The notes beneath the pieces were generated by a model. The model was not told where the DNA came from and searched no databases. It saw nothing but the letters and a program-made list of their open reading frames with translations. The translations under genes and the position numbers were made by a program. Of a DNA stretch of 64,000 bases, positions 15,330-55,492 are shown one piece after another. This DNA is from an uncultured Pirellulales bacterium (lineage in GTDB: Bacteria > Planctomycetota > Planctomycetia > Pirellulales > S012-138). The first letter of the stretch is position 1; each line of letters begins with the position of its first letter. The stretch covers positions 16,091-80,090 of the forward strand of contig CAZEEG010000008.1 of assembly GCA_964511065.1 (NCBI GenBank), given 5' to 3'.

Positions 15330-15705
15330 CGAACCTCGTCGGCCTGGCAAGTTCGGCACGTGGGGTAAGGCGGCAGGGGCCGAAGCGCGGGAGGACGATG
15401 GTCCGCGACGGCAGAACCACACACAAAAATGCCCACGTTCAACTTTACGCCTTAACCCACCAAAAGATAAGGGCCGGCGTTGTGCGACCGCGCCACTGGC
15501 ACCGCCAATGCCGGCTATTGCCCGCCGGTCGCAGGAGTGTAAAACCGGGGACTGCCCACGCGGCAAAGTGACGGGTAAACTTAGCAGCGGCGGCCCGCCT
15601 GCCTTCCTTCCCCCCAAGGGCAACGGCGGCCTATGCGCCCCACGGCCCTCCGGTTCCGCTCCAGGAACCGGCTTCATGGCACTAACGATCAGCGCGAGTT
15701 GAAGG

Positions 15706-15966
15706 ATGCCCAAGCGCAGCAAGCACCAAGAACGGATTATCAAGAATTACTACCAGAACCTCGAAGACATCAGCCTCCAGAAACTTTCGGAGCATGTGAC
15801 CGAGTTGTACCTGGAAGAAGGCAAGGCGCGCGAACGCCGCTGGAAACACATCGTCTCCGCACTCGAAAAATTGGAAATCAAGCCCGAGGAGATTGCGCGA
15901 CTTCGGGCAAACGACAACCCGGCCGAACTGGCCCAACTGGTACAACGGCTGTTGGCACGCAAGTAG
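15706..15966 (+). CDS. Small conserved hypothetical protein (86 aa, K/E-rich, helical)
   Basis: The composition is atypical of spurious GC-rich ORFs (MPKRSKHQERIIKNYYQNLEDISLQKLSEHVTELYLEEGKARERRWKH...). It sits in an intergenic gap between divergent ABC genes. Confidence 0.45.
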   Translation: MPKRSKHQERIIKNYYQNLEDISLQKLSEHVTELYLEEGKARERRWKHIVSALEKLEIKPEEIARLRANDNPAELAQLVQRLLARK

Positions 15967-16228
15967 CCACAGATAGAGTTCTCCCCGGCGGTTGAGCCGG
16001 GGGCGCTCTTTACCGCGACGTTGCCTGGCCGGATCGGCTCCCCAGCGGCTGTGCTGAACCATCCGGTGGATCGAACCCCACGAGCCGATGGTGGGCCATC
16101 GGTCGCCCGGCGCTGCCGGCAAGGGAAGTGCCGACGGCAGCGCCCCTTTGGGGCCTGCCGCTATGTCGTCCTGACCGGTTGTAACGTTCAGCAAGCCCCC
16201 TGCGCCCCCCACGATTCGTGCTGCTGTT

Positions 16229-17326
16229 ATGCCGCTGATTCGCCTCCAAAAAATTTCCCGAAGCTACGGCCGCGTGCAGGCACTCAAAAGTGTCAGCCTG
16301 ACGCTGGAGCCTGGAACGATCGGGCTGGTTGGCAACAACGGCGCCGGCAAGAGCACGCTGCTCAAAATTCTGTTGGGCCTGTTGCGGCCCGACCACGGCA
16401 GCGGCGAGATTCTGGGGCACGACATCCGCCGGCGAAGCAGCGAAATCCGCGGCCGAGTCGGTTACATGGCCGAGGCGGCCGCCGTGATTCCAACCCTTCG
16501 TGGGGTCGAGTTTGTCACGCTCTCCGGTGACCTGTATGGCATGCCGCACCGGCAAGCGAAGCGCAGGGCCCACGAAGTGTTGAACTACGTCGGCCTGGGA
16601 GAACTGCGATACCGGCGGCTCGAAGAATACTCCACCGGCAACCTGCAGCGGCTCAAGTTGGCCGCCGCACTCGTTCACGATCCCGACCTGCTGCTGCTGG
16701 ATGAGCCGACCAATGGTCTCGATCCTCGTGGCCGCCAGGCGATGCTCAAACTGATTCAGGATCTCATCCGCGAGACCGGCAAGAGTGTCGTGTTGTGTAC
16801 GCACCTGCTCGGCGATGTTGAACGCTTGTGCAAGCAGGTCGTGGTCCTGCACCAGGGAACGGTGCTGTTATCGGGCAGCATGGCCGACCTGCGGCGCCGG
16901 GCGAGTAACCATTTCGAGCTTGGCTGGCAGGCCGACGCCCCGCAACGGTTTGAACGAGCGCTGCTCGACCAGGGCGTGCAGTTTCTTAACCGCCGCCGCA
17001 GTGACAGCACGGCCCATGCGGTGGTCCATTTGCCCGGCCAGGGCTCGACGACGCGGCTGTTCCAACTGGCCAATGAATGCGGGGCCGTCATCACGCTCCT
17101 TCGTCCGCAGGAGGAAGACTTACAGCAATTGTTCTTCCGGGTGACCCAGTCGGGGGAGCATGCCAGTACCAGCCAGGAAAGCATTTACACTCCCCAAGCA
17201 GGCGCCGCCATCGGTCAGGCGGCCTCTGAGCCGCCTGACCGATTGAACATTCAATCGCCCATGCCGCCCGAGGCGGAAGGCTCACCCGCCGACGCCCCCC
17301 TGCCCACGCGAAAGCCCCGTCCATGA
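16229..17326 (+). CDS. ABC transporter ATP-binding protein (ABC-2 type)
   Basis: Walker A GNNGAGKST, signature YSTGNLQRL, Walker B LLLLDEPTNGLD. The stop overlaps the next gene by 4 nt (ATGA). Confidence 0.9.
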   Translation: MPLIRLQKISRSYGRVQALKSVSLTLEPGTIGLVGNNGAGKSTLLKILLGLLRPDHGSGEILGHDIRRRSSEIRGRVGYMAEAAAVIPTLRGVEFVTLSGDLYGMPHRQAKRRAHEVLNYVGLGELRYRRLEEYSTGNLQRLKLAAALVHDPDLLLLDEPTNGLDPRGRQAMLKLIQDLIRETGKSVVLCTHLLGDVERLCKQVVVLHQGTVLLSGSMADLRRRASNHFELGWQADAPQRFERALLDQGVQFLNRRRSDSTAHAVVHLPGQGSTTRLFQLANECGAVITLLRPQEEDLQQLFFRVTQSGEHASTSQESIYTPQAGAAIGQAASEPPDRLNIQSPMPPEAEGSPADAPLPTRKPRP

Positions 17327-18207
17327 AGCTCGATACGGCCCATTACCACGGCTGGAACGGCCGGCTCCGCTCGCCCTGGCTCAGCAGTCTGGCCATCGTC
17401 AAGGTGGCGATGCTGCAGCTCTTTCGCCGCAAGAGCTACTGGGTGGTGATCGGCCTGGGCCTGCTCCAGTTTGTGGTGTTCTTTGCCATCATCTACGCGG
17501 TGACGCAGCTAGGCGCCTTCCGAAGCCGCGTGTTGGAGCAACTCAACTTCGTGGCCGAACCAACCGGTGACAGCGAAAACAACGGCTACTTGATGTTCAT
17601 GGAACGGCAAAGCCTGGTGGTCATGATGCTGCTGGCTTTCGCCGGCAGTCTGCTGGTTGGGGCCGATTTCCGATTGAAGTCGCTGCCGTTTTACTTGTCG
17701 CGGCGGATCGACCGCCGCCATTATATCGTTGGCAAGTTGCTGGCGATTTCAGCCATTGTCGCCTTGATGACGGTGATCCCGGCTCTGCTGCTGTACCTGG
17801 AATATGGCGCCTTCACATCCAGCTTTGAATATTGGGTTGAGAACTGGAAACTGGTGCTGTCGATCCTGGGATATGGTCTGGTGCTGTGTACGGTGCTGAG
17901 CATCATGCTGGTGACGCTCTCAGCCTATCTGCAGCGAACCGCGCCCATCGCCATCACCTGGAGCAGCCTGTTCTTCATGCTGGCCGTGGTGGCCCGGCAG
18001 ATGCACGATGTGACAAACAACCCTAACTGGCTACTGCTCGACCCCTGGCGCAACATGCGCTATGTCGGCCGGTATTGTTTCGGCTATTTTCCCGGCGGAG
18101 AGGACCTGGAATTGGGCATGAAAGCCCTGGCAATCCTGTCTGCCGTGTGCGTTGTTTGCCTGGTGGCGTTGGTCTACCGTGTTCGGGCGGTCGACGTGGT
18201 GGAGTAG
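17323..18207 (+). CDS. ABC-2 family transporter permease
   Basis: 294 aa, about 6 TM helices. It is translationally coupled to the upstream ATPase. Confidence 0.75.
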   Translation: MKLDTAHYHGWNGRLRSPWLSSLAIVKVAMLQLFRRKSYWVVIGLGLLQFVVFFAIIYAVTQLGAFRSRVLEQLNFVAEPTGDSENNGYLMFMERQSLVVMMLLAFAGSLLVGADFRLKSLPFYLSRRIDRRHYIVGKLLAISAIVALMTVIPALLLYLEYGAFTSSFEYWVENWKLVLSILGYGLVLCTVLSIMLVTLSAYLQRTAPIAITWSSLFFMLAVVARQMHDVTNNPNWLLLDPWRNMRYVGRYCFGYFPGGEDLELGMKALAILSAVCVVCLVALVYRVRAVDVVE

Positions 18208-18293
18208 CGGCAGCGCACGAGCGGTACCACTTGCAAACGGACCTTCCATACGGAGCGCCGATTGACATTTCGCCCGCCCTGGACTTCTAGATC

Positions 18294-18776
18294 ATGAGGA
18301 AACCAGCAATGACGCATCCCAAGCCGCGGCGGCCACTGCCGGTGATCGGGTGGCGAGAATGGGTGGCGCTTCCGGATTTGGGCATCGACTGGATCAAGTC
18401 CAAGGTCGATAGCGGGGCCCGCACCAGTTGCCTGCACGCATTTGATATCGAGTACGGCCGCAAGAAAGGCGAACCGTACGTGCGATTCAAGGTTCATCCC
18501 GTCCAGCGGGATCCGCACAAGACGGTCATCGCCGAGGCCCCCCTGTTGGAGCGCCGGCACGTAAAAAGTTCCAGCGGCCACTTGTCGTTGCGGCCCGTAA
18601 TCGTTACGCCAGTGCAATTGCTGGGCGAGAACCTGGAGGTCGAACTGACCTTAGCCTCGCGCGATGCGATGGGCTTTCGCATGCTCTTGGGAAGGCAAGC
18701 GGTTCGTGGTAAGTTCTTCATCGATTCCGGGCACTCGTTCCTGGCTGGGCACCCTCCCACCGGACGGTCTGGGTAG
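18294..18776 (+). CDS. RimK-associated putative ATP-dependent zinc protease (retropepsin-like, DUF785/PF05618)
   Basis: 160 aa with the N-terminal motif PVIGWREWVALPDLGI typical of this family. It lies directly upstream of rimK. Confidence 0.7.
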   Translation: MRKPAMTHPKPRRPLPVIGWREWVALPDLGIDWIKSKVDSGARTSCLHAFDIEYGRKKGEPYVRFKVHPVQRDPHKTVIAEAPLLERRHVKSSSGHLSLRPVIVTPVQLLGENLEVELTLASRDAMGFRMLLGRQAVRGKFFIDSGHSFLAGHPPTGRSG

Positions 18777-18798
18777 TCAATCATAGTCGGGGGACTTT

Positions 18799-19704
18799 AT
18801 GAAGATCGCCATCCTTTCCAGGAGGCCATCCCTCTATTCCACAAGACGTTTGAAAGAAGCAGGGCAGGCGCGCGGTCACGAGGTGCGAATCGTCGATTAC
18901 CTGCGCTGCTATATGGATATCACCTCGCACAAGCCACAGGTGCTGTACCAAGGTGAGCCACTGCTGGGATACGACGCCATCATTCCCCGGATCGGCGCAT
19001 CGAACACCTTCTATGGGACGGCGGTCGTCCGGCAGTTCGAAATGATGGGGGTCTACTCGGCCAACGAGTCGCAAGCCATTAGCCGCTCGCGCGACAAGCT
19101 CCGCAGCTTGCAACTGCTGTCGCGGAAGGGGATCGGCCTGCCCGTCACCGGTTTCGCCCACAGCACGAAAGACATCGAGGGGCTCATCAATATCGTCGGC
19201 GGCGCGCCGCTGGTCATCAAGCTGCTGGAGGGTACCCAGGGGATCGGCGTGATCCTGGCCGAAACCCGCAAGGCAGCCGAGGCGGTCATCGAGGCTTTCC
19301 GCGGCCTGCACGCCAACATCCTGGTGCAGGAATACTTGAAAGAAGCCCGCGGGGCCGATATCCGCTGTCTGGTGGTGGGTAACCGCGTGGTTGCCGCCAT
19401 GAAACGCCAGGCACCGCCCGGCGAGTTCCGCTCCAACCTGCACCGGGGTGGTACGGCCGTTAAGATCAAGCTCACGCCCGAGGAACGCAGTACGGCTACC
19501 CGGGCCGCCAAGGCCATGGGGTTGAACGTGGCCGGTGTGGACTTGATCCGCTCTAACCACGGGCCGGTGGTGGTCGAAGTAAACTCCTCGCCCGGCCTGG
19601 AGGGGATCGAAGCGGCCTCCGGCATCGACGTTGCCTCCGAGATCGTGGAATTCCTGGAAAAGAACGCCTCGCCGGGCAACACCAGGGACCGCGTGAAAGG
19701 ATAG
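18799..19704 (+). CDS. rimK: Ribosomal protein S6--L-glutamate ligase (ATP-grasp)
   Basis: 301 aa ATP-grasp protein ([18 protein letters not shown]...). It is similar to RimK along its whole length. Confidence 0.9.
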
Positions 19705-19718
19705 CGCCGCAGCTTGGA

Positions 19719-21011
19719 TTAAGCCCGGGCCGTGGCCGTCACGCGCGCCAGGTCGTCAAAGAACTTGGGATACGTTTTCCCTACGCAGCCAGGGTCGCGG
19801 ATCACGACGCCTTCGCTGCGCAGCCCCACCAGCGCCAGGCTCATCGCCATCCGGTGGTCGTCGTAGGTATCGATGGCCGCGGGCCGCAGCGGGGCCGGCG
19901 TGATATCCAAGCCATCGGGCAATTCAACCACCGAAGCTCCCAACTTGCGCAGTTCCGTGGCCAGCGCAGCCAGGCGGTCGGTTTCCTTATGCCGCATGTG
20001 CGGTACGCCGCGCACCCGAGTGGTGCCTTCGGCAAACAGGGCGACGGCAGCCAAGGTTTGCACCGTGTCGCTGATCGCGTTCATATCGACATCGACGCCG
20101 CGGAGCGGTCCGCCCTGCACCACAATACCGTCGTCGTGCGACGATACCTGGCAACCCATCTTCGCCAATACATCGACAAATGCGACATCACCTTGAAGGC
20201 TTTGCCGGTTGAGGCCGCGAACCTTCACACGCCCCCCGGTGATCGCGGCAGCGCCGAAAAAGTAGCTGGCGGCCGAAGCATCGGGTTCAATCGCGTATTC
20301 CCTACCCTGGTATCGGGCCGGGGCGATGAAATATTGCCGCTGCGGTTGAAGCTGTACATCGGCTTTCACCCCGAATGCGGCCATCACCGCGAGCGTCATA
20401 TCGACGTAGGGTTGCGATACCAGTTCGCCTTCGATAAGCACGGTAACTGGCCCCTGCGCGTTGGGGGCCGCCATCAACAGGCCGCTCAGGAATTGGCTCG
20501 ATACATCGCCGCGGATAGTCGCCGTTCCGCCGGGCAGACCCGATGCGCGTACGGTCACCGGTGGAAAGCCGTCGGTCCCCTCGCAACGAACATCGGCCCC
20601 CAGTTGCCGCAATCCATGAAGCAGGTCGCCGATGGGTCTTTCGCGCATGCGCGGAGTGCCGTCGAGGCGGAAAGTACCTCGGGCAGTTGTCACCATCGCG
20701 GTCAGGAAGCGAATGCTCGTCCCGCTATTGGCGATATACACCTTCAGCGGCTGCGCAACGTCGATGGTTCCTCCTGAACCGTCGACCAAGAGCGTTTCGG
20801 TTGTTCCTTCCGCTTGCACGCCGACCCCCATCGCATTGAGGGCGGCGATCATCACCTGGGTATCTTCGCTATCCAGGGCGCCTAACAAGCGCGACTGGCC
20901 ATTGGCCAAGGCGGCACAAATCAAAGCCCGATTGGTGATGCTCTTGGAACCGGGGGGACGAATCTCGGCGTCAATCGCCCCCGAGGGTTGAATAGCTAGT
21001 TCGTCGGTCAT
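19719..21011 (-). CDS. aroA: 3-phosphoshikimate 1-carboxyvinyltransferase (EPSP synthase)
   Basis: 430 aa. It contains GSKSITNRAL and the two-domain EPSP synthase architecture. Confidence 0.9.
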   Translation of the reverse strand: MTDELAIQPSGAIDAEIRPPGSKSITNRALICAALANGQSRLLGALDSEDTQVMIAALNAMGVGVQAEGTTETLLVDGSGGTIDVAQPLKVYIANSGTSIRFLTAMVTTARGTFRLDGTPRMRERPIGDLLHGLRQLGADVRCEGTDGFPPVTVRASGLPGGTATIRGDVSSQFLSGLLMAAPNAQGPVTVLIEGELVSQPYVDMTLAVMAAFGVKADVQLQPQRQYFIAPARYQGREYAIEPDASAASYFFGAAAITGGRVKVRGLNRQSLQGDVAFVDVLAKMGCQVSSHDDGIVVQGGPLRGVDVDMNAISDTVQTLAAVALFAEGTTRVRGVPHMRHKETDRLAALATELRKLGASVVELPDGLDITPAPLRPAAIDTYDDHRMAMSLALVGLRSEGVVIRDPGCVGKTYPKFFDDLARVTATARA

Positions 21012-44502: not shown

Positions 44503-44774
44503 GTGGGCGTCAACCAGGCATTGGCCAGCCCCCCCTGATGCCACGGGGCATCGCGGCCTGGCCCTCTTCCGTTTTGCACACTCGATGCATTTGCCAGGTC
44601 GCCAAATGTGACCTAGGGTTCCCGTGGCGGATTGCAAGCGGCGGGCGCCCATGGGTGCCCCCCGCGCGAGCCGCCGATACCCATCGCACAAATTCAGGGG
44701 GCGTTCTGCCTCTTGGTTGACGTTCGTTCCGATTCGCTACGCCATTCCACGCTTGTTACGGCCGATGCCGGCGT

Positions 44775-45821
44775 GTGCGCATGTCTGTGCAGCATGACGG
44801 AGAACTTGTGGCTGCCACCAACTGCAATCCCGGCTGGGAAAGTGTCAAAGGACTGGTCGCTGATTTGACCGCCGATCGCGAGCGGTTCGACCAGTTGTTG
44901 GCCGCGCAGCGCCAATGGCTCGACGAGTTGCGCCAGCGGCAGCAGCGTCAGGCCCAGGCGCTGGCCCGACTTCAATCGCAGAACGAGGCCCTGGCCCGCA
45001 ACGAAGCCGAACACGAGGAGCAATTGGCCGAGCAGGCCGAACAGGTAGCCAGGCTCCAGCAACAACTCAAGGAGGCCCAGCGGTTGGCCGATGAGGCCGC
45101 GGCTGAAGCCGACGCGCTCCGCGAACAAATGGAGGCCGAACGCCGGGAGTTTCAACAGGAGCAACAGGCTGCTAAGAAGTCTCGCCGCCAACTCGAAGAA
45201 CGCTGCACCACTTTGGAAAAGGAACGCGATGCGTTCGAACAGCAGTTGGCGAAACTGGAGGAGCAATGCCGGCAGCTTGAACATCAGCGCGAGTCGCTCC
45301 AGCAGGAACTGGCTTCCGTCCAGCAGCAGCAGACCAAAGATCAAAAGCAACTGGAAAAACTGCAGCAACAGCAGCAGCACAGCGAGTCGGACTACAACCA
45401 GCTTCAAGATCGCCTCAAGCGCGAACAGCAGGCGCTCAAAGAGGCTCGCGAAGACCAGGCCCGGGTCGAGGAGCTGCTTCAAAAACGGATCGACGAGGCC
45501 AAGCGATTGAGGGAAGAACTGGCCGAAGTCCGCGAGCGCGCCAACGAAGAACGGGCCGAATGGACTGCCGAACTGAAATTGCTCAGGCGGGCGCTGGAGG
45601 TCAAGTCCGACGACCGCGACGACACACTGCTGGATCGGCTCGCACCTGCCGCCGCTGAGGAGACGCTTGAACCGGTGGCCGTTGGCGCCGACTCCAGCCA
45701 AGCAGAAAAGGATACGGCGGCCTCGACGCCGCAACCTCGCAAGGCCCAGCGATCCGACCCGGTGCTCGACGCCGTGCGGGCACAATTTGAACGACTACAG
45801 GCCAACATTCTCGGAGAGTAA
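44775..45821 (+). CDS. Long Q/E/R-rich coiled-coil protein
   Basis: 348 aa, nearly all heptad-like charged helix (LDELRQRQQRQAQALARLQSQNEALARNEAEHEEQLAEQ...). It is the first gene of a same-strand cluster. Confidence 0.6.
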   Translation: MRMSVQHDGELVAATNCNPGWESVKGLVADLTADRERFDQLLAAQRQWLDELRQRQQRQAQALARLQSQNEALARNEAEHEEQLAEQAEQVARLQQQLKEAQRLADEAAAEADALREQMEAERREFQQEQQAAKKSRRQLEERCTTLEKERDAFEQQLAKLEEQCRQLEHQRESLQQELASVQQQQTKDQKQLEKLQQQQQHSESDYNQLQDRLKREQQALKEAREDQARVEELLQKRIDEAKRLREELAEVRERANEERAEWTAELKLLRRALEVKSDDRDDTLLDRLAPAAAEETLEPVAVGADSSQAEKDTAASTPQPRKAQRSDPVLDAVRAQFERLQANILGE

Positions 45822-45912
45822 GCCGCCTCCGGTGTCTTGGCCCCCAGGCACCGTTGTGAACGCCCTCTGAGTTTGCAGCCAAACCATCATCCAGGCCGAG
45901 GAGATTACCCAC

Positions 45913-47103
45913 GTGAAACCGACGGCATTGCCAGCCGCCTCGCGGCGATTTGGGCAGTTGCTGATGGCTTGGGGCACGGCCATCACCGTGATCTGTATGT
46001 TGGCGCTCTTGTTCTGGGCCCGGCCGCAGCTTGATACGGCTATTTACTGCGGCATCGCCGCGGTATTTGCCTTGGCGTTCCTGGTGATCCGCAACCGTGC
46101 GCGCCGGCGGCAGAAAGCAGCATCGCCTTCCGCGCCGCGTTTGAAGTCGGCGGCCCGGCCGCAGCCAACTCCGCTGCCTTCCGACGCCAAGCAACTCGTC
46201 GCCCACATGCTGGAGCAAGGGAGATATGCGTTGCTCTTGCGGCCGGAGATTCGCTCGAACCTGGACGAAGACCAGATGGTCATGGCGTTGGAAACGCTCA
46301 TGAACGAAATGGCCGCGGTTACAGGCGGGGTTGTAGGCCCGTATTCCAATGCCATCGACCTGGCATGCGACGACGACGATCAACCCCAGCGCGGCTGGAC
46401 CACGGTAGCGCCGTTCTACCTGGACCGTTGCGCGGTCACCAATCGCCAATATGCCTTGTTTGTCGAAGCCGGCGGATACGATGCCTACGAGCTATGGCTG
46501 CCGGAGGTCATTCCGGCCATTCCCTCGCTCGTCGACCGCAGCGGCCATCCGGGCCCCCGCCACTGGCAAGGGGGTACGTTCCCGGCGGGCGACGACGAAC
46601 GGCCCGTGGTCGGCATCAACTGGTACGAAGCGGCCGCCTACGCCCGCTGGGTTGGAAAGCGGCTGCCGACCGATGCCGAATGGCAGAAGGCGGGCAGTTG
46701 CCCCGTGATGGTGGCTCCCGGCCAGATGGTCGATCGCCGCTTCCCCTGGGGCGATGCCGTGGATCGCTCGCGAGCCAATATCTGGGGCTCCGACGCGGGT
46801 GGAATCGTTGCGGTCAACCACTACGCGGAAAAATCCATCGGCGGCTTACAGCAGCTTGTCGGCAACATTTGGGAATGGGTTGCCGACGATTTCGGCCTGG
46901 AGGAACGTGGCCCACGCAACAGCATCGTCTTGCCCACTCCGATGAAGGCCATTCGAGGCGGAGCGTTTGATACCTACTTCGACAGCCAGGCCACGTGCCA
47001 GTTTCAGAGCGGCGAAAACCCAATGGCCCGGCGTCACAACATCGGCTTTCGGCTAGCGCTATCGGTGCGCGACCTGGAGATGCCGCCCCCCGCCGAGGAA
47101 TAA
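45913..47103 (+). CDS. Membrane-anchored formylglycine-generating-enzyme (FGE/SUMF1) domain protein
   Basis: Two N-terminal TM segments. The FGE-domain hallmarks are INWYEAAAYARWVGKRLPTDAEWQKAG and GNIWEWVADD. Confidence 0.8.
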   Translation: MKPTALPAASRRFGQLLMAWGTAITVICMLALLFWARPQLDTAIYCGIAAVFALAFLVIRNRARRRQKAASPSAPRLKSAARPQPTPLPSDAKQLVAHMLEQGRYALLLRPEIRSNLDEDQMVMALETLMNEMAAVTGGVVGPYSNAIDLACDDDDQPQRGWTTVAPFYLDRCAVTNRQYALFVEAGGYDAYELWLPEVIPAIPSLVDRSGHPGPRHWQGGTFPAGDDERPVVGINWYEAAAYARWVGKRLPTDAEWQKAGSCPVMVAPGQMVDRRFPWGDAVDRSRANIWGSDAGGIVAVNHYAEKSIGGLQQLVGNIWEWVADDFGLEERGPRNSIVLPTPMKAIRGGAFDTYFDSQATCQFQSGENPMARRHNIGFRLALSVRDLEMPPPAEE

Positions 47104-47256
47104 CCCCCGCAGGCCGTCCGGGGGGCACCGTACCTGCCGCCTGTGGAGCAAAGTCGGCGCCCCCGTGCAGTCTTGCAAGCAGCATTTAGAAACATCGAAT
47201 TTCCCGTCTTGGGGCAAAGTCGCGTTGTTGCCAACTTTCACCAACCGGAACAACAC

Positions 47257-48165
47257 ATGACCCGTGGCGAAGTGATCCTTGATTCGTACCGGCTGGCCAA
47301 ATATGCCGTGTCGGTACCCTGCCACATCTGCGGCGAACCTAACACGGTAGACGCGGAATTGTGCCGCGTCTGCTTCGCCCCCATGGCACTGGCCCACCAA
47401 ATCCGCAGCACCAAAGTGGCACCGACGATGATCGCCACGATCGGCTCCAGCGGCGTGGGCAAGACGGTCTACTTGGGCATGTTGATGGACATGATCAGCC
47501 GCCGCACCGACGGCACTCAACTGCTTGCCCGCGGGGCGTTCTCCGTCAATCTGCAACAGAAGACGATCCACGCGCTCCAGCAAGGCAGGTTTCCGGAAAA
47601 AACACCGAACGAACCGGATCGCTGGAACTGGGTTCACTGCCAGTTCAAAAGCGAAGCCTGCCCTAAGCCGGTCGAATTCATCATGCCCGACCTGGCAGGC
47701 GAAGCCCTCCTGGAGGAAGTCGATCATCCGGCCTCGTACCAGGTGGTGCGTTCCTTCCTGTCCAAGTGTGCCGGGGCGATGATCCTGATCGACGCCCTCC
47801 AATTGTTCAACGGCACGTTTGAACAGGACTTCTTCACCATGAAACTGCTCAGTTACCTGGTGGAGTTGGTCGACGATCCCAAGCGCGGCTGGAGGAACCG
47901 GCCGATCGCCGTGGTCTTCAGCAAGGCCGACCAGTGCGACGAAGTCTTCAGCGACCCCGAAGGCTACGCCCGGCAGTATGCCGCGGGCTTGTGGCGGCAT
48001 TGCCGCGAACGCTTCAAGCGGCACAAGTTCTTTGCCGCCAGCGTGGTCGGTCGCTGCATTACCCGGCACAACGTGTACGACGGCGAAATGCAGGTGCCCC
48101 TGCGGGTGGAACCTCGCGGGATTGAGCCTCCCTTTGAATGGATGATCGAACAGACCCGCCGCTGA
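47257..48165 (+). CDS. Ras-like small GTPase with N-terminal zinc-ribbon
   Basis: ORF 47143..48165. The likely ATG is at 47257 (MTRGEVILDSYR). Zinc ribbon is CHICGEPNTVDAELCRVC. G1 is GSSGVGKT, G3 is DLAGE, G4 is SKAD. Confidence 0.7.
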   Translation: MTRGEVILDSYRLAKYAVSVPCHICGEPNTVDAELCRVCFAPMALAHQIRSTKVAPTMIATIGSSGVGKTVYLGMLMDMISRRTDGTQLLARGAFSVNLQQKTIHALQQGRFPEKTPNEPDRWNWVHCQFKSEACPKPVEFIMPDLAGEALLEEVDHPASYQVVRSFLSKCAGAMILIDALQLFNGTFEQDFFTMKLLSYLVELVDDPKRGWRNRPIAVVFSKADQCDEVFSDPEGYARQYAAGLWRHCRERFKRHKFFAASVVGRCITRHNVYDGEMQVPLRVEPRGIEPPFEWMIEQTRR

Positions 48166-48198
48166 GGCCGGCCGGTTTCCGGCCGCCCCCTGGTCGTT

Positions 48199-49182
48199 GT
48201 GTCAGAACCTCCCCCCGAGTCGAGCAGTTTCCACCAGCCGAGGAGCGCAGCGTTGAACAACTCTGGATCGGCGACTCGTCAGCCAGGGCAAGACGTCGTG
48301 CCGGCTCAATCCTCGCCTGAATTCGGCGGCCGCGCCGCTCAACAGCCGGCCCGATGTGCCGAGGCCTCCTGCCAGCCAACCACAGAGGCCGACCAGGCTA
48401 TCTTTACGTCGATCGAGTCGGCGCGGGGCGGTGGTTATCAGCTTGCGGCCACCAGTCCCGGCGTCAGCCCTGCCGAGGCCCGGGAGCTTTCCGCCTGGGG
48501 GCCCTCGCACGATTCGCTTTGGGAGACCAGCGAAGCAGCGCGCAGTTACAACTTTCACCGTTTGCAAAGCGGGCGGCTGGCCATATCACGCAGTATTCAC
48601 GGCGAGGCCGAGTACAGCGGACGCGGAGGCCGGTCGGTCTATACGCACTTCCTCCTTTTCAGCCCTGCCGACTTCGCCCATTGGAGCGGCAATCCGTTCG
48701 CCATCTTGCGGGCCGCCAGCCAAACGGAAACACCGCTGCAACCCGTCCCGCAGCTTCTTTCCCGCTGGCGGTGCGAACCGCCCGATCCCTGCGACCGCCT
48801 GGGCCAGATATCCCACCTGGTGGAAGCAGCGGGAGGGCCGTTGAATGTGGCCTCGGCCCTGGATGCGGCCATACACCACGAAGCCGTAGCGTTTGTGGGG
48901 CCGCCCTTGGTGATCGAGGCGGCGATGGAAGTACTATTCCTGCTGCTGCCCGAATCGTCCAGGACGAATGTCTCGTTTGCGACAGGCTTGAAGTATTCGC
49001 CGCGCCGCCCGGCCCGCTGGATCGGCCTGCACGGCGATCTGCACCTGAGGCGGCGGCTTGCCCGCCAGTACCAATTCCAACTGGCCGATCTGACCCAAGG
49101 AACTGCCGACGTTCGGGCCTTGGAAGCCTTGGGCAGCCTGCTGGAAGAAGTGGCCCAAGACTTGGCATGCGAGAACACTTAG
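48199..49182 (+). CDS. Hypothetical protein, last gene of the GTPase cluster (possible GTPase partner)
   Basis: 327 aa, 34 nt downstream of the GTPase gene. No recognisable motif. Region-wide coding-like composition. Confidence 0.5.
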   Translation: MSEPPPESSSFHQPRSAALNNSGSATRQPGQDVVPAQSSPEFGGRAAQQPARCAEASCQPTTEADQAIFTSIESARGGGYQLAATSPGVSPAEARELSAWGPSHDSLWETSEAARSYNFHRLQSGRLAISRSIHGEAEYSGRGGRSVYTHFLLFSPADFAHWSGNPFAILRAASQTETPLQPVPQLLSRWRCEPPDPCDRLGQISHLVEAAGGPLNVASALDAAIHHEAVAFVGPPLVIEAAMEVLFLLLPESSRTNVSFATGLKYSPRRPARWIGLHGDLHLRRRLARQYQFQLADLTQGTADVRALEALGSLLEEVAQDLACENT

Positions 49183-49382
49183 CAGGACCGGTCACTCGGC
49201 ATTAGTCTTAAGCCAGGGCAACCTTAGCTCGTGACAGCGGCAATACGGCTTGCCGGATCGAGGTACCTGGTGCGCTCCCCAACCACCTATAGGGAAGCGT
49301 TTTCAACCGGCACATGAACGCCAAAGAAACAGGCCGCCGATCGACTTCGATTGGCGGCCCGCGCTAGCAAAGAAGAATCGAG

Positions 49383-49456
49383 TGGGCGGTACTGGACTCG
49401 AACCAGTGACCTCAACGATGTCAACGTTGCGCGCTAACCAACTGCGCCAACCGCCC
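49383..49456 (-). tRNA. tRNA-Val (anticodon GAC)
   Basis: Minus-strand sequence GGGCGGT-TG-GCGC-AGTTGGTTA-GCGC-G-CAACG-TTGACAT-CGTTG-AGGTC-ACTGG-TTCGAGT-CCAGT-ACCGCCC-A folds into a canonical cloverleaf. All four stems are Watson-Crick paired. There is a T-loop TTCGAGT. CCA is not encoded. Confidence 0.9.
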
Positions 49457-49736: not shown

Positions 49737-50246
49737 TCACTCCATTTCGGACAGAAGTTCATCGGGCAACGGGATGCCCTTAAGGATGCCTTCGCAAACC
49801 AGGTTTCGATCAACGAAAAGCTGGAAATTGCAGTTGATCATGGCTCCGCGCCGCACTTTCAGCAGTTTGCAGACGATGATCAGCCGGTCGCCAGGCCGGA
49901 CAATGCCGCGAAAGCGGACGTCCTGCAGCCCACCAAACCCCAGCATCCGGGCACCCAGCAGGTCGTGGCGTTGGACGTAGTAACTGGCCAGTTGTGCGGC
50001 CGCCTCGCACATCAGCACGCCCGGCATCAACGGGAGCCCGGGCATGTGTCCACGCACCCAGAACTCGTCGTCGGTCAGGTCCTTAAAACCGACACACATC
50101 ATGTTCTCGGGATCTTCGTGCAAAATGCCGGAGAGCTGCTCCATCTCGAACCGCTGCGGGTTATAGCGGCGGATATCGTCGATGGTGGCGAGAACTTCAG
50201 CATTTTCGACGAGCGACAAGTCGATCAGTTCATCACGCGCGGCCAC
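49737..50246 (-). CDS. FabZ/FabA-like hot-dog fold 3-hydroxyacyl-ACP dehydratase
   Basis: 169 aa with the FabZ active-site region WVRGHMPGLPLMPGVLMCEAAAQ. Confidence 0.7.
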   Translation of the reverse strand: MAARDELIDLSLVENAEVLATIDDIRRYNPQRFEMEQLSGILHEDPENMMCVGFKDLTDDEFWVRGHMPGLPLMPGVLMCEAAAQLASYYVQRHDLLGARMLGFGGLQDVRFRGIVRPGDRLIIVCKLLKVRRGAMINCNFQLFVDRNLVCEGILKGIPLPDELLSEME

Positions 50247-50631: not shown

Positions 50632-51633
50632 ATGGCCCGCAGCCTCACCGAGCGTTCTGGCCCCGCAACATCCTCCCAGCCGGGACGGGTGGCCACCCCA
50701 CATTTGGGCAAGCCGGCTGGGTCAACGGTCCCACGAACCAGCGCGCAGGTGCCCTCCGCGGCGACCGCTACCGGCCAACAACGAATACCGCTGCGCCCGG
50801 CCTGGAATGCTACCGGAGCCTGGCAACACGCCGAAACGCTGCACGACGGCCCCCTGACGGTGGTTTTTCGGGCCCGGCCCATCGCAGGTGGCGAGGCCGC
50901 CTACGTGCTGAAGCGCCTGCAACCGCACTGGGTCGATGATCCCAGGGCGGTCGCCATGCTGAAGCGTGAAGCCATCGTCGGGCAGACCGTTCATCACCGC
51001 AACCTCGTCCCCGTGCTGGATGCTGGGCTGGACCATGAACCCTATTATGTCGTGACACCGCTGCTGGAAGGGCACACGCTTGAGACCTTGCTGGTCGGCC
51101 AACCCCGCCCCGCCCTAGCGCAAGCGCTGTGGATCGTTCGGCAAGTCGCCGACGCACTAAACGCCTTGGATGCGGCCGGGTGGATGCACGGCGACGTGAA
51201 ACCCTCGAACATCATCGTTTCGCCGCGCGGCCACGTTACGCTGATCGACCTGGGATTTGCCCGGCGGCGCGACGAGATGCGGGGAGAAACCGACCGGCCC
51301 TTGCCCGGTACGCCGCATTACATGGCCCCGGAAATGCTCATTTCGCGGCTACGACCCGACGCCCGCAGCGATCTCTACAGCCTGGGGACTGTGCTGTATC
51401 GTATGCTGGCTGGGCGATTGCCGTTTGACGGCGATGCGGCGACCGTACTCGCTCAGCAGTTACAAGGCCGGCCGCCCGCGCTCCGCGCGTTGGATCGCTC
51501 CATACCCGAGGAAATTTCGGCGCTGGTGCAACGGTTGCTGGCAAAGGACCCTCTGCGCCGTCCAAACTCGCCGGCCGAATTGGTCCGTCAACTGGTTGCG
51601 CTGGAGTTGGCGTATTTTGAGGATCGCGGGTAG
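50632..51633 (+). CDS. Hanks-type serine/threonine protein kinase
   Basis: Catalytic loop is HGDVKPSNIIV. It also has DLGFA (DFG-equivalent) and an APE motif (YMAPEM). Confidence 0.85.
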   Translation: MARSLTERSGPATSSQPGRVATPHLGKPAGSTVPRTSAQVPSAATATGQQRIPLRPAWNATGAWQHAETLHDGPLTVVFRARPIAGGEAAYVLKRLQPHWVDDPRAVAMLKREAIVGQTVHHRNLVPVLDAGLDHEPYYVVTPLLEGHTLETLLVGQPRPALAQALWIVRQVADALNALDAAGWMHGDVKPSNIIVSPRGHVTLIDLGFARRRDEMRGETDRPLPGTPHYMAPEMLISRLRPDARSDLYSLGTVLYRMLAGRLPFDGDAATVLAQQLQGRPPALRALDRSIPEEISALVQRLLAKDPLRRPNSPAELVRQLVALELAYFEDRG

Positions 51634-51689: not shown

Positions 51690-52832
51690 TTACCGCACCT
51701 TGTCGGCCACCCATTGCACCAGTTGGTTGGGTGTCATGGCGGCGACTTCTGCCCCGGCGTGGACCATTCGCGCGGCCAGGTTGCGGTCGTAATTGGGTTC
51801 TGCGCGGTCGTCCAAGGCGGCCAGTCCTAGTACATTCACGCCGGACTCGCACAAGCCCTTGGTGACGGAAAGCAAATGCGCCTCTGAGCCGCCTTCATAG
51901 AAATCGGTCACCAGAACCACGATGGTTTGCCGCGGGTTCTCGACCAGGCCGGCCGCGTATTGCATGGCCGAGGCGATATCGGTCCCCCCGCCCAGTTGCA
52001 CCTTCATCAGCGTTTCTACCGGATCGGTGCAGTCGGCAGTTACGTCCACCACAGCCGTATCAAACAGCACCAGATGCGCGCGGAGCGAGCCCATTCCCCA
52101 GAAAATGGCGGCCATGATCGCCGAATGCATCACGCTATCGAGCATGCTGCCGGACTGGTCGACCAGGATGATGATCTGCCAGCGGTCGGCTTGTCGGCGA
52201 ATTCGCGAGAAGAAATAGGGCGTTCTCAAATACAACCGCTTTTCCCGCGGGTTGTAGTGGACCAGGTTGCGGCGCAGTGTCGTCTTGGCGTCGAAATTCT
52301 TGGCTACCTTCATGGGGCTGCGGCGGCGGCGATCCACCGCACCAGTGAAGATCGACTGCACTTCCCGGGCCAGCTTTTCGATCAGTTCTTCCACCACCTT
52401 GCGGACCAGGGTTCGGGCCATCGCCAGCACCTCTTGATTCATCAGGTGCTTGGTTTGCAAAATCGCCTTCAGCAGCGTCTGGCTGGGCTCGGCCCGCTGC
52501 AACACCTCGGGATTAGTGACCATCTCGTCGAGTTGGTACCGCTCCAGGGCGTCGCGTTCCAACCGTTCGATCGTCGAGGTGGGAAACAACTCGTGAATCT
52601 GGTTGATCCAGTCGGGCACCGTAAGCTGCGAGGCTTGCAATCCAGCCGACCGGGCTGTTTGGTTCTTCTGGCTGCGGCGGATGTGGCGGCCAGCGCCATA
52701 TTCGCGGTCGTACAAAAAAGCGAGCGCCTGGTCCTGCTGGGCCGCCTCACCTTGCGGCGTGCAACCCAGCGCTTGTTCGGCGCCTTCGCCCAACACCAGC
52801 CGCCAACGCAACAGCCGCGCGCGATCACTCAT
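51690..52832 (-). CDS. von Willebrand factor A protein, CoxE-like (PF05762-type)
   Basis: N-terminal RWRLVLGEG motif typical of CoxE-type vWA proteins. The C-terminal vWA MIDAS is DQSGSM...T...D. It overlaps the upstream gene by 4 nt (ATGA). Confidence 0.75.
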   Translation of the reverse strand: MSDRARLLRWRLVLGEGAEQALGCTPQGEAAQQDQALAFLYDREYGAGRHIRRSQKNQTARSAGLQASQLTVPDWINQIHELFPTSTIERLERDALERYQLDEMVTNPEVLQRAEPSQTLLKAILQTKHLMNQEVLAMARTLVRKVVEELIEKLAREVQSIFTGAVDRRRRSPMKVAKNFDAKTTLRRNLVHYNPREKRLYLRTPYFFSRIRRQADRWQIIILVDQSGSMLDSVMHSAIMAAIFWGMGSLRAHLVLFDTAVVDVTADCTDPVETLMKVQLGGGTDIASAMQYAAGLVENPRQTIVVLVTDFYEGGSEAHLLSVTKGLCESGVNVLGLAALDDRAEPNYDRNLAARMVHAGAEVAAMTPNQLVQWVADKVR

Positions 52833-55492
52833 GGAGATTTCTCCTGAATAGGTTCCGGCGGTAACCGCAAACCGTAGCGCTCCAGGGCCGCAAACAGCTC
52901 GGCCTCCCAGGCCAATGCCGCGGCCGCTTGCTCAGGACGGACGGCCAGGGCTGCCGATTCCGCCGTGGCGGCCGGCTGCACCCCCAGCACCTGGAGCAGC
53001 GTGGTCGCCAGGTAATGCTTCTCGCGCGGCGTGAAATACGTGAACGCCAACCGCAGCGACGGCAATGCCTGCAGGAACTGCTGGTCGCTGTAATCCACCA
53101 GCAGCCGGTCGATGCTTGCCACTAGCTGAGGGTTGCGCTGGACGACTTCGCGAGCCAGACAGAACAGGCCGGTGAGGAAGTCGCCAAGCTGCTGCGGATC
53201 GGCAAATTGCGCCAGCGCTTCGGCCGTGTGCGCGGCATCGGTGGCTCCCAGCGCCCATAAACCGCCCCAGGCCGCTCCACGCGTAAGGGGCAATTGGCCG
53301 TGGTCCTGCTGGACCCGGGCCAGCACGTCGAGCAGTTCGTCGTGCAGATCGGCCAGGGCTTCTCCGGCCGCCTCCAGCGTTTGCACGAGCGCCGAAACAC
53401 CGCTGAGAATTTCGCGATCCTGGCCAGACACTTGTCCCAGGCTCTCCAAGAGCCACATGCCACGGATGAAGGCTTCGCGCAGCAGGGCACCGATATCGTC
53501 GCGGTTGGCGGTAGCGAGCACCTCGTCGTAGCGGAACAAGTACAGCAGATGGCCCAGGGCCGCCGTGTTGGTAAAGAAGTTGACGTCCTGCCGGAAGATG
53601 GAGAGCAATTGACGCTGGAAGTCGGCACGCAATCGCGGCAGCCCGGCTAGCGCGGCATCGAGCAATAGCAGCGCCGCCGATTCGGCATCGCGCTGGATGG
53701 TTTTCGCCTGCTCAAGCAATTGCTCTTGTGCGGCCTCCTCCAGGCGTGGTCCGTATCGGGACGCTTCAATGGCCGAGCTTTCAAAGTCGGGCGACCAATG
53801 CAGTCGCCACTGCTCCCAAAGATGCGCCAGATCGTCGCGCTGCTGAAGATCAACCCCATCGGTCTGCCTGAAGCCGGCAATCTTCAAGATTCGCAGGCGG
53901 TGCAACACGCTGCTCCGCCGACGGTCGCGCGGCTCGTGCAAATGCAACTCAATGTCGCACGCCCGAAGTGGTGGTTCCAAGTCGAGCTGCGCCAGCGTGT
54001 GGCGAATGTCCTGCACCAGCGGGGGCACTCGGGCGCCCTCGGCGATCAGGCCGCGGCGATTGCCGCGCAGGGCCTCGTGAACTGCCTCGAGGAACGGATG
54101 CGCGGCACCGATGGCCAATTCTTCCTTGACCAGGGCCCCGGTCACAGCATCGACCAGGTCCCACCGCCAAACCTCAGAATGACCGCGCAGGGCCGCTAGC
54201 CCCAGGGCGGTGGTTTCTACTGCAATCAAGTCGGCCGTACTGACACGTTGGCCGCGTTGCCGCAACTGACGCGACACCTCAGCCAACAACTGCCGATAGG
54301 TTTGGCCACGGCCCGACCTTCGCCCCCCGGCATGGCCCTCCGCCGCAGCATGGCCCTGCTTTGCGGGGGGAGCCTCACCATGTGGTGTTTGCCGGTCCAG
54401 CCAAACCTGGTGGTAAAAACCGGGGTTCGGCATGCCGGCTTCATAGCCGCGCAGGCTATCCAACCGCTCGTAGGAGTAGGGAGTGAGTGCAATACCTGTC
54501 GTTTCGTCCGCGGCGTTCGCATCGCTTGGCGCAGCGCCGCCGGGTTCGTCCTGGTCCAATGGACCATCTGGCGGTGTGGCACCTACTGGAGCGTCCTGGA
54601 CCGTTGGCTCGGCCGAAGTCGGAATGGTGGGGTTCAGGCTTTCGTGAACCATGGAGTGCCACTCATCAGGCGTGGGATCGTCCAAGCCGACAAACGGTTG
54701 TCCGTTGAGCCGCGCGAACAGGGCGTAACTGTGATAGGCCCCGGTTACCACGACCAGCGGCCCTTCAAGTTCAGCCGCCGCCTGCTGGATTTGCTCGGCC
54801 ATGTATGCTTCGCGGCGCCGGTCCTCGGCAGGTACATGCCCATCGGCCAGGCGGATCAGCCCACAGAGGGTATGTGCTCGGCGCAGGTACTCTTCCAAGG
54901 GAAGATTCGCATCAATCTCGCAAAGCGTGTCCCAGAGCGCGTTGAAGTCCTCCACGCCCAGTTCGCGGCACAACACCTCGACATAGCCGCTGCAGCGCAA
55001 TTCGGCATCGGCATACCGGTGGCTGAGGCTCTTGGCCGTGGCGATCTCCGACCAGGGCAGGTCGATGAATCGCGCCTCGGCTCCCTGTGCCCTGGCCGCC
55101 TGAAGTGCCTGCCATTCCGGCGAATATTCGCAGAATGGATAGAACGCCCCGCGGCGCAGCCCATCGGCCAAACGCACGTAACTGTAAATGGCGATCGGCA
55201 GTTCGTGCGGAAGCCACAACTCCTGCATATAAGGGTTGAAGTCCGCGGGCCCTTCGATCAGCACTGCCGCCGGACGCACCCGGCCGATCAGTTCGCGCAC
55301 CAATCGGGCACAAGCGGGGCTATGATGCCGCACGGGGAAATACACCACCGGCGCCGACAGGTCCAGCAGCGGTTCAACATCCAGTGCCCCATCCGGTGCC
55401 GCGCCCTGTGGAGCGCCGCCGGACTTGGCCGGGTTGTCGTTGGCGTTGATCGGCGCCGCTTGGCGCGCGGCCGAGTATTCTTCCATGGCCAC
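52829..55492 (-). CDS. Large (887 aa) uncharacterised conserved protein translationally coupled to the CoxE-like vWA gene (DUF5682-like context)
   Basis: Long ORF with coherent composition. The N-terminal ~250 aa carries paired His motifs (VVYFPVRHHSP ... VVVTGAYHSYAL). The rest is mostly helical. Confidence 0.6.
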   Translation of the reverse strand: MAMEEYSAARQAAPINANDNPAKSGGAPQGAAPDGALDVEPLLDLSAPVVYFPVRHHSPACARLVRELIGRVRPAAVLIEGPADFNPYMQELWLPHELPIAIYSYVRLADGLRRGAFYPFCEYSPEWQALQAARAQGAEARFIDLPWSEIATAKSLSHRYADAELRCSGYVEVLCRELGVEDFNALWDTLCEIDANLPLEEYLRRAHTLCGLIRLADGHVPAEDRRREAYMAEQIQQAAAELEGPLVVVTGAYHSYALFARLNGQPFVGLDDPTPDEWHSMVHESLNPTIPTSAEPTVQDAPVGATPPDGPLDQDEPGGAAPSDANAADETTGIALTPYSYERLDSLRGYEAGMPNPGFYHQVWLDRQTPHGEAPPAKQGHAAAEGHAGGRRSGRGQTYRQLLAEVSRQLRQRGQRVSTADLIAVETTALGLAALRGHSEVWRWDLVDAVTGALVKEELAIGAAHPFLEAVHEALRGNRRGLIAEGARVPPLVQDIRHTLAQLDLEPPLRACDIELHLHEPRDRRRSSVLHRLRILKIAGFRQTDGVDLQQRDDLAHLWEQWRLHWSPDFESSAIEASRYGPRLEEAAQEQLLEQAKTIQRDAESAALLLLDAALAGLPRLRADFQRQLLSIFRQDVNFFTNTAALGHLLYLFRYDEVLATANRDDIGALLREAFIRGMWLLESLGQVSGQDREILSGVSALVQTLEAAGEALADLHDELLDVLARVQQDHGQLPLTRGAAWGGLWALGATDAAHTAEALAQFADPQQLGDFLTGLFCLAREVVQRNPQLVASIDRLLVDYSDQQFLQALPSLRLAFTYFTPREKHYLATTLLQVLGVQPAATAESAALAVRPEQAAAALAWEAELFAALERYGLRLPPEPIQEKSP

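Follow-up and report, generated by a model that had tools for sequence, protein, structure and literature searches.

A planctomycete GTPase-centric gene cluster with a zinc-ribbon DO-GTPase, an FGE-like membrane protein, a coiled-coil partner and a GAP1 protein of predicted longin/DENN-type fold

Introduction

What kind of system do four adjacent same-strand genes of an uncultured Pirellulales bacterium form, and do they belong to the core genome or to a mobile island? The genes lie at positions 44775-49182 of a 64,000-nucleotide (nt) stretch of contig CAZEEG010000008.1 (assembly GCA_964511065.1), here called the window. They encode a coiled-coil protein, a membrane protein with a domain like that of formylglycine-generating enzyme (FGE), a zinc-ribbon GTPase and a further protein of 327 amino acids (aa). 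The original prediction for this DNA saw an undescribed Ras-like signalling module on a genomic island at a tRNA-Val gene. By its domains and gene order, the cluster is instead a planctomycete member of a system kind already named, and its behaviour across relatives favours a vertically inherited core locus.

Kaur, Burroughs, Iyer and Aravind (eLife 2020; PMC7159879) defined the DO-GTPase and GAP1 families and the "GTPase-centric systems" built from them. In such systems the GTPase is of TRAFAC type and its Walker B motif holds a glutamate, membrane association is frequent, and a "GTPase-associated protein 1" (GAP1) of N1 or N2 type is encoded downstream. Planctomycete GAP1-N2 systems with FGE-sulfatase (FGS) domains are listed there as a separate variant. 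DENN, longin and Roadblock domains are not mentioned anywhere in that paper.

Results

Identity of the cluster

All four open reading frames (ORFs) were found on one strand as the original prediction had described them, with short spacers of 91, 153 and 33 nt (39 nt before the GTPase if GTG 47143 is its start, and 87 nt before GAP1 if TTG 48253 is).

44775-45821, + strand: coiled-coil protein gene, 348 aa (ORF list)
45913-47103, + strand: FGE-like (FGS) membrane-hairpin protein gene, 396 aa (ORF list, PF03781)
47257-48165, + strand: zinc-ribbon DO-GTPase gene, 302 aa, ATG start, alternative GTG at 47143 (Pfam DO-GTPase1/2)
48199-49182, + strand: gene for the short form of GAP1, 327 aa, GTG start (GAP1-N2)
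48253, + strand: alternative TTG start of GAP1, giving 309 aa, the start used by gene callers (P0121)

The GTPase matched the Pfam families DO-GTPase2 (PF19993, E = 1.6e-11, 44.8 bits) and DO-GTPase1 (PF19975, E = 7.6e-11, 42.2 bits) above the gathering score of 27. Both assignments recurred on all 120 GTPase homologues among the matches listed. The protein encoded downstream matched GAP1-N2 (PF20013, E = 1e-16, 61.7 bits against a cutoff of 24), with a sub-threshold match to GAP1-M (PF20014, 18.3 bits against a cutoff of 24), and the 396-aa protein matched FGE-sulfatase (PF03781, E = 6.4e-38). In public annotation pipelines, homologues already go by the names 'double-GTPase-like protein' and 'GTPase-associated protein 1'. 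Pfam matches above gathering scores, the Walker B glutamate, the zinc ribbon, the downstream GAP1 and the published planctomycete association with FGS domains thus identify the cluster, at the sequence level, as an FGS-type DO-GTPase/GAP1-N2 GTPase-centric system. As these families were defined in 2020 (PMC7159879), the module cannot be called undescribed. NCBIfam and PADLOC returned nothing specific. PADLOC was silent on the FGE-like protein, the GTPase and GAP1 and gave only coiled-coil noise, so the cluster corresponds to no catalogued defence system.

The GTPase has intact motifs and a Rag/Rab-like predicted fold

The nucleotide-binding motifs of the GTPase are intact and follow an N-terminal zinc ribbon.

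47320-47373, + strand: zinc ribbon CHICGEPNTVDAELCRVC (CxxC...CxxC; C22, C25, C36, C39) (motif)
47443-47466, + strand: G1 P-loop GSSGVGKT (motif)
47689-47703, + strand: Walker B/G3 motif DLAGE, residues 145-149 (motif)
47920-47931, + strand: G4 motif SKAD (motif)

In an alignment of 66 GTPase sequences the four cysteines, G63, G68, K69, T70, D145, G148, K223 and D225 were invariant, and S65, A147 and E149 nearly so. The G1, G3 and G4 motifs had been read correctly from the sequence in the original prediction. K115 and T116 were likewise invariant in this alignment, and T116 is plausibly the switch-I threonine. The ribbon fusion had been thought uncommon, but N-terminal zinc ribbons are carried by 60% of DO-GTPases (PMC7159879). 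Within residues 1-55 (47257-47421), about 52 residues align to ribosomal protein uS14 type Z (PDB 7nhn_o, E = 8.6e-4), and NCBIfam PRK08061 gave E = 2.3e-4, far under its cutoff. This weak likeness may reflect shared zinc-ribbon ancestry or convergence.

Structural comparison of the GTPase model gave values of 17.2 for RagD, 17.1 for Rab32 and 16.5 for Rab28. These were followed by 16.4 for the bacterial stress GTPase YcjX, which had the longest alignment (225 residues), 16.2 for an Asgard Rag-like protein and 13.8 for MglA. The predicted fold thus resembles those of Rag and Rab GTPases, with a beta-rich C-terminal extension. A Pfam scan of the GTPase found no Ras, Arf, Roc or MglA match, the only small-GTPase match in NCBIfam was TIGR00231 small_GTP (E = 0.14, 11.9 bits against a cutoff of 42.5), and a profile of the family found no small GTPase and no solved homologue among PDB sequences. 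"Ras-like" is true of the fold, not of the family, and the profile matches to Ras, Arf or MglA families that the original prediction had set as a test are missing.

GAP1 is predicted to have a longin/DENN-type fold

Structure prediction divided GAP1 into two lobes.

48388-48738, + strand: GAP1-N2 domain, predicted longin fold (PF20013 and model)
48610-48630, + strand: EYSGRGG loop signature with an invariant arginine, R142 (family alignment)
48880-49095, + strand: GAP1-M domain, predicted alpha/beta fold, possibly DENN-core-like (sub-threshold PF20014 and model)

An AlphaFold2 model built on 115 homologues had a mean predicted local distance difference test (pLDDT) score of 86.9 and a predicted template modelling (pTM) score of 0.81. 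It was confident over residues 44-304; the first 45-60 residues are weakly conserved and were modelled with low confidence. The first lobe runs beta-beta-alpha-beta-beta-beta-alpha-alpha, the longin topology. The second is alpha/beta and is trailed by only one terminal helix (residues 287-304). Foldseek searches of the PDB matched the model to the guanine nucleotide exchange factor (GEF) domain of DENND1A with Rab35 (E = 1.7e-4) and to TagF (E = 4.4e-4). FLCN, FNIP2 and DENND10 came lower, and fold searches also returned NPRL2/3 and longin domains. Apart from TagF, the Foldseek matches are longin or longin-plus-DENN regulators of Rab or Rag GTPases. TM-scores for the structural matches were modest.

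Sequence searches gave no such link. No Pfam DENN match was found on GAP1, and a profile of the 115 sequences returned no DENN, FLCN or TagF protein from the PDB at E <= 10 and no solved homologue. Because profile searches of PDB sequences yielded no solved homologue, the fold assignments rest on AlphaFold2 models. GAP1 is thus predicted to have a longin/DENN-type fold, with a link to DENN and longin proteins that is structural only. On the strength of this modelled fold it is a credible candidate GTPase-activating protein (GAP) or GEF for the neighbouring GTPase. The predicted fold, of longin/DENN type, thus lends support to the suggestion that the 327-aa protein might be a Roadblock- or longin-type regulator. 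In FLCN and Nprl2 the longin domain supplies an arginine finger. The invariant arginine of the EYSGRGG loop recalls these fingers, so by analogy a GAP mechanism appears as plausible as a DENN-like GEF mechanism.

Most GAP1 homologues are 440-510 aa long (for example P0170, P0214 and P0149). Past the M domain they continue with a linker of low complexity, which leads to a further helical domain at the C-terminus, about 100 aa in size and without a Pfam match. A short form of about 225-310 aa, ending directly past the M domain, characterises the clade of the window, together with L001, L005 and a few others. The window GAP1 therefore lacks the C domain of the tripartite N/M/C architecture described for the family (PMC7159879).

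The FGE-like protein is predicted to form a membrane hairpin and to carry a non-catalytic domain

Conservation and hydropathy divided the 396-aa protein into three parts.

45958-46089, + strand: hydrophobic hairpin (family hydropathy profile)
46186-46254, + strand: conserved linker helix LVEQMLAQGRYALLLRPQI between hairpin and domain (conservation)
46372-47058, + strand: FGE-sulfatase fold (PF03781)

The domain aligns with bacterial and human FGEs, EgtB and OvsA, reaching E = 1e-17 against FGE sequences of the PDB. At the catalytic CxxxxC, before the RYR motif, Streptomyces coelicolor FGE reads 'LCHDSYCNRY' and the window protein 'F---DTYFDSQ'. No cysteine-rich column was present at the catalytic positions in an alignment of 71 members. 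With the cysteine pair deleted or replaced throughout, the domain is, judging from this alignment, no formylglycine-generating enzyme. C362 is conserved in 99% of the 71 members, and long motifs are conserved too. Identity to the window protein was 45-55% in most loci and 37-70% overall, and the domain is not hypervariable.

Transmembrane counts from single sequences were noisy (0-3 segments, with uncertain ORF starts) and were replaced by a column-wise hydropathy profile of the family. In this profile, about 40 consecutive residues are hydrophobic apart from a brief interruption at the centre, and basic residues lie on either side. As basic residues flank the hairpin on both sides, the positive-inside rule suggests an N-in/C-in arrangement, which would place the FGE domain in the cytoplasm alongside the GTPase and GAP1. 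The view of this protein as membrane anchored and non-catalytic, already taken in the original prediction, thus holds: a hydrophobic hairpin was found and the cysteine pair was gone in 71 of 71 members.

A coiled-coil protein is the fourth component

Searches of Pfam, NCBIfam and PADLOC with the coiled-coil protein gave only weak matches of coiled-coil type (SMC, JetC, LmuB). Two segments are conserved in relatives.

45561-45599, + strand: W..ELK.LR.ALE segment (relatives)
45756-45800, + strand: C-terminal amphipathic helix DPVLDAVRAQFERLQ (relatives)

Most relatives have a C-terminal signature of DPVLDSVMAQFEMLQKD.ARRR after W..ELK.MR.LLE. The gene is poorly caught by BLAST, and the relaxed motif DP[VA]L[DEG]SVMAQFEMLQKD..RRR was used instead. 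A same-strand upstream coiled-coil ORF with this motif was found in at least 66 related loci, at lengths of 146-644 aa that indicate a variable rod. Motif and position mark this protein as the fourth conserved component of the cluster. It is absent from the published account of the planctomycete FGS subtype (PMC7159879).

The four genes are a conserved operon

A scan of species-representative genomes with peptide patterns recovered at least 80 loci, nearly all from Pirellulales, Thermoguttaceae and other planctomycete metagenome-assembled genomes (MAGs). Four more from contig look-ups brought the total to 84. In tblastn searches with the four window proteins, the FGE, GTPase and GAP1 genes were collinear on one strand in 80 of the 84; the others mostly have little sequence beyond the GTPase, and one is a solo paralogue. 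In about 65 of 80 loci the end of the FGE gene shares 1 or 4 nt with the GTPase start, a sign of translational coupling; the window clade has a spacer instead. With the coiled-coil gene upstream in at least 66 loci, co-occurrence is far above chance. The four genes are a conserved, co-inherited operon, as the original prediction had proposed.

The operon behaves as a core locus

A tRNA gene adjoins the cluster in the window and further genes surround it (DUF1559, PhyH, a FabA-like protein, a Ser/Thr kinase, VWA_CoxE/DUF5682 and an M3 peptidase).

49382-49456, - strand: tRNA-Val(GAC), adjoining the cluster and not part of the system (tRNA finder)
49737-50246, - strand: FabA-like dehydratase, beyond tRNA-Val
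50632-51633, + strand: stand-alone Ser/Thr protein kinase (Pkinase, E = 8.5e-33), beyond tRNA-Val

The tRNA-Val(GAC) begins 199 nt downstream of the cluster with its 3' end towards it, and had been taken for an island insertion point. Tests of this idea were uniformly negative. No tRNA adjoined the cluster in 38 of 38 related loci, including L005, the nearest lying about 1.5 kb beyond GAP1 (L078). The 3' 23-mer of the tRNA occurs once in the window with up to 3 mismatches allowed, so no att-like repeat was found, and none of the 10 flanking ORFs scanned had an integrase-like domain. The guanine-plus-cytosine (GC) fraction was 0.61-0.645 in the cluster and 0.60-0.656 in its flanks. The insertion claim is thus contradicted and the tRNA adjacency is coincidental.

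Several relatives share a housekeeping neighbourhood (L085-L088, L002, L009 and others), with AspRS, rhodanese, glycosyltransferase (GT2) and LutC/LutB genes upstream and a convergent CarA downstream. Pieces of it occur in about 30 of 88 sequences, and the AspRS-rhodanese part is present beside the four-gene cluster in a Blastopirellula marina assembly (GCA_002967755.1; L088). In the lineage of the window this neighbourhood has been lost. Mean identities to L086 over the same genome pairs were 67% for the GTPase, 53% for the FGE-like protein and 39% for GAP1, with 73% for CarA, 71% for AspRS and 63% for LutB. No relative was found among IMG/VR viral contigs, and tblastn of a plasmid collection gave nothing closer than one match at 26% identity. 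The housekeeping synteny, core-gene rates of divergence, flank-like GC, missing viral relatives and lack of a recurrent tRNA together favour a vertically inherited core locus under purifying selection over a mobile, diversifying island.

In the seven related neighbourhoods with gene annotation, neither the kinase nor the FabA-like dehydratase accompanied the cluster. A VWA_CoxE protein (380 aa, E = 5e-54) and a DUF5682 protein (887 aa, E = 3e-121), encoded by genes that overlap at start and stop, lie 2.5 kb downstream in the window (51690-55492, - strand). A MoxR ATPase gene adjoining this pair was not observed.

Gene boundaries

The GTG at 47143 was rejected as the GTPase start. The 5' extension it would add is not kept in frame in L005, an 88%-identical relative, in which the stretch between the FGE stop and ATG 47257 shows out-of-frame indels. 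All 120 GTPase homologues among the matches listed are 295-316 aa long. With homologues of about 302 aa and no in-frame conservation upstream in L005, ATG 47257 is, from this comparison, the real start. A 363-aa ORF lies antisense to the coiled-coil gene (44694-45785, - strand). Because the + strand coiled-coil gene is kept in 66 loci, we dismiss it as a shadow ORF, produced by a coiled-coil coding sequence that is repetitive and rich in GC. Scans for sigma-70 promoters and intrinsic terminators inside the cluster found none above shuffled expectation. GC-rich hairpins after the FGE and GTPase stops, and the region after GAP1, were considered and discarded, folding no better than shuffled sequence (z +1.1 to -1.3).

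Discussion

A proposed membrane-tethered GTPase switch and its alternatives

We lean, with moderate confidence, towards a membrane-tethered GTPase switch on the cytoplasmic face of the inner membrane. The hairpin of the FGE-like protein would insert in the membrane, leaving a non-catalytic, lectin-like ligand-binding FGE domain and the linker helix facing the cytoplasm. The zinc-ribbon GTPase would bind this hairpin protein, and the coupled translation of the two genes in most relatives suggests that the two proteins probably interact and are produced at similar levels. GAP1, as a predicted longin plus DENN-core module, would set the nucleotide state of the GTPase, either as a GEF in the manner of DENN or as an arginine-finger GAP in that of FLCN and Nprl2. 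The coiled-coil protein could serve as a scaffold or effector of variable length that docks by its C-terminal amphipathic helix. In this scheme we infer which proteins touch, which way regulation runs, how the membrane protein is oriented and what the output is. In this Pirellulales lineage the operon looks like part of the core genome, passed on vertically, and we therefore favour a putative housekeeping role at the membrane or envelope over one as a diversifying defence island.

Several points weigh against this switch. Every contact between its components is read from gene order, and the short GAP1 lacks the d-DENN lobe. Our literature search found no experimental work on the DO-GTPase/GAP1 family beyond the in-silico paper of 2020. 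The locus counts stem from a scan of species-representative genomes that was limited by its peptide patterns, and are lower bounds. A solo DO-GTPase paralogue (a 443-aa ORF, L055 2355-3686) has no FGE or GAP1 neighbour and adjoins an FG-GAP repeat protein; its MAG also has a full four-gene cluster (L075). Relative L001 has a DDE transposase and markers of FtsH-vWA-MoxR ternary systems (an fvmX3-analog and fvmX7) 2.6-8 kb downstream of its cluster (13562-20927); no other locus inspected hinted at conflict-system surroundings. Finally, conflict or immunity is the role favoured in the paper that defined the family, and a conserved core is compatible with it.

We consider it possible, though rather unlikely, that the cluster is a biological-conflict (anti-invader or abortive-infection) system in which GAP1 couples invader sensing to the DO-GTPase and the FGS protein acts as membrane sensor or effector. 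This is the published reading for GTPase-centric systems; FGS domains are counted among the effectors that these systems share with MoxR-vWA ternary systems, and are variable ligand binders in diversity-generating retroelements (PMC7159879). The ternary markers and transposase near the L001 cluster and the VWA_CoxE/DUF5682 pair in the window point the same way. A conflict system is, however, expected to have a variable sensor or effector, whereas here the same four proteins recur in unchanged order in at least 80 loci and the FGE domain, 45-55% identical with long invariant motifs, is not hypervariable. The cluster and its ten flanking ORFs yielded neither a toxin-like enzyme nor an FNIII sensor nor a second GTPase, and PADLOC models matched only coiled-coil noise. 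Housekeeping, partly syntenic neighbourhoods, core-gene rates of divergence and absence from viral contigs also speak against this role. More doubtful still is a non-immune Pirellulales housekeeping module in which a Rag/Rab-like GTPase, a true longin plus DENN regulator, a membrane-hairpin receptor and a coiled-coil tether organise invaginations of the cytoplasmic membrane or endomembranes. Such a module would be a bacterial counterpart of the small GTPase-DENN/longin-tether logic of eukaryotes, possibly through distant homology.

By analogy with its catalytic relatives, the FGE-like protein might be an active enzyme performing oxidative chemistry of the FGE, EgtB or OvoA kind on a cytoplasmic substrate, with the GTPase and GAP1 as maturation or regulatory factors. 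The domain is strongly similar to FGE and to the catalytic folds of EgtB, SenA and OvsA, contains C362 and many invariant polar residues, and, to judge from the translational coupling, may form a tight pair with the GTPase. The copper-binding cysteine pair is gone in all 71 members, however, which makes this very improbable. EgtB and OvoA require a DinB-like N-terminal iron domain. No such domain is present here, as the alignment covers the FGE-like part only. Neither the window flanks nor the related neighbourhoods hold a linked sulfatase or thiol-histidine pathway gene, and the GTPase is TRAFAC/Ras-like and no G3E metallochaperone. A metallochaperone or enzyme-maturation role for the GTPase was ranked low in view of the missing catalytic cysteines. 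The undescribed Ras-like island module of the original prediction is hardly credible: the tRNA-Val 3' end does face the cluster and the flanks differ among several relatives, but the families already have names that pipelines apply to homologues, and 0 of 38 loci are tRNA-adjacent, with no att-like repeat, integrase-like domain or GC deviation in the window.

Relation to known systems

The window cluster shares with published GAP1-N2 DO-GTPase systems the Walker B glutamate, the N-terminal zinc ribbon, the GAP1-N2 gene immediately downstream, a partner bearing a transmembrane segment and the planctomycete FGS/FGE link (PMC7159879). It differs in having one GTPase and one zinc ribbon where those systems usually have two. 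It also lacks their FNIII-repeat protein: no fn3 match was found in the four cluster proteins, the ten flanking ORFs or the seven annotated related neighbourhoods. Conversely, it adds a conserved gene for a coiled-coil protein that ends in a putative docking helix, and its components are fixed between relatives at a syntenic core locus, whereas effectors that differ between close relatives mark a conflict system.

Like the regulators in DENND1-Rab35, FLCN-FNIP-RagC and GATOR1 (Nprl2/3), GAP1 is predicted to combine a longin lobe with an alpha/beta lobe that may be DENN-core-like, and the GTPase model is closest to RagD, Rab32 and Rab28. Unlike the eukaryotic longin/DENN regulators, GAP1 has no detectable sequence homology to them and no d-DENN lobe, and in switch II of the GTPase a glutamate replaces the catalytic glutamine. 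TagF, a regulator associated with type VI secretion systems (PDB 9t0n, 6iz8), matches the fold of GAP1 at 6-11% sequence identity; neither the flanks in the window nor the seven related neighbourhoods with annotation showed a gene of such a secretion system. The Myxococcus pair of MglA, a Ras-like GTPase, and MglB, a GAP of Roadblock fold, differs in that the window GTPase matches no MglA or Ras profile. The window regulator is predicted to be two-lobed and longin plus DENN-like rather than an MglB-type Roadblock dimer, and is joined by an extra membrane anchor and a coiled-coil partner. Clear domain homology and structural motifs connect the membrane protein to the FGE/EgtB fold (PF03781). 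Unlike in those enzymes, the catalytic cysteine pair is absent, and the domain is hairpin-tethered and predicted to be cytoplasmic. Its gene neighbour is a GTPase, where sulfatases or a kinase would be the usual partners.

Implications

The kind of system was already predicted from sequence in 2020, and the cluster is mostly a re-discovery. New here are the DENN/longin-like fold predicted for GAP1, the putative docking motif of the coiled-coil protein and the signs of a core-genome locus, none of which we found in the literature; in particular, the literature search returned no published DENN link for GAP1. DO-GTPase/GAP1 systems are known solely from that one comparative-genomics paper, and their members still lack an experimental structure and an assayed function. 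The locus and its roughly 80 relatives offer a clean, invariant four-gene version and thus a handy experimental entry point, the more so as the assembly of an isolate of Blastopirellula marina, a species with published genetic tools, also has the four-gene cluster. Should GAP1 prove to be a DENN/longin-type regulator of a membrane Rag/Rab-like GTPase, this mode of regulation would extend to bacteria long likened to eukaryotes in their cell biology, and the whole GAP1 family would gain a testable biochemical role. If the cluster is instead an immune device, this subtype would show that such systems can become fixed core genes.

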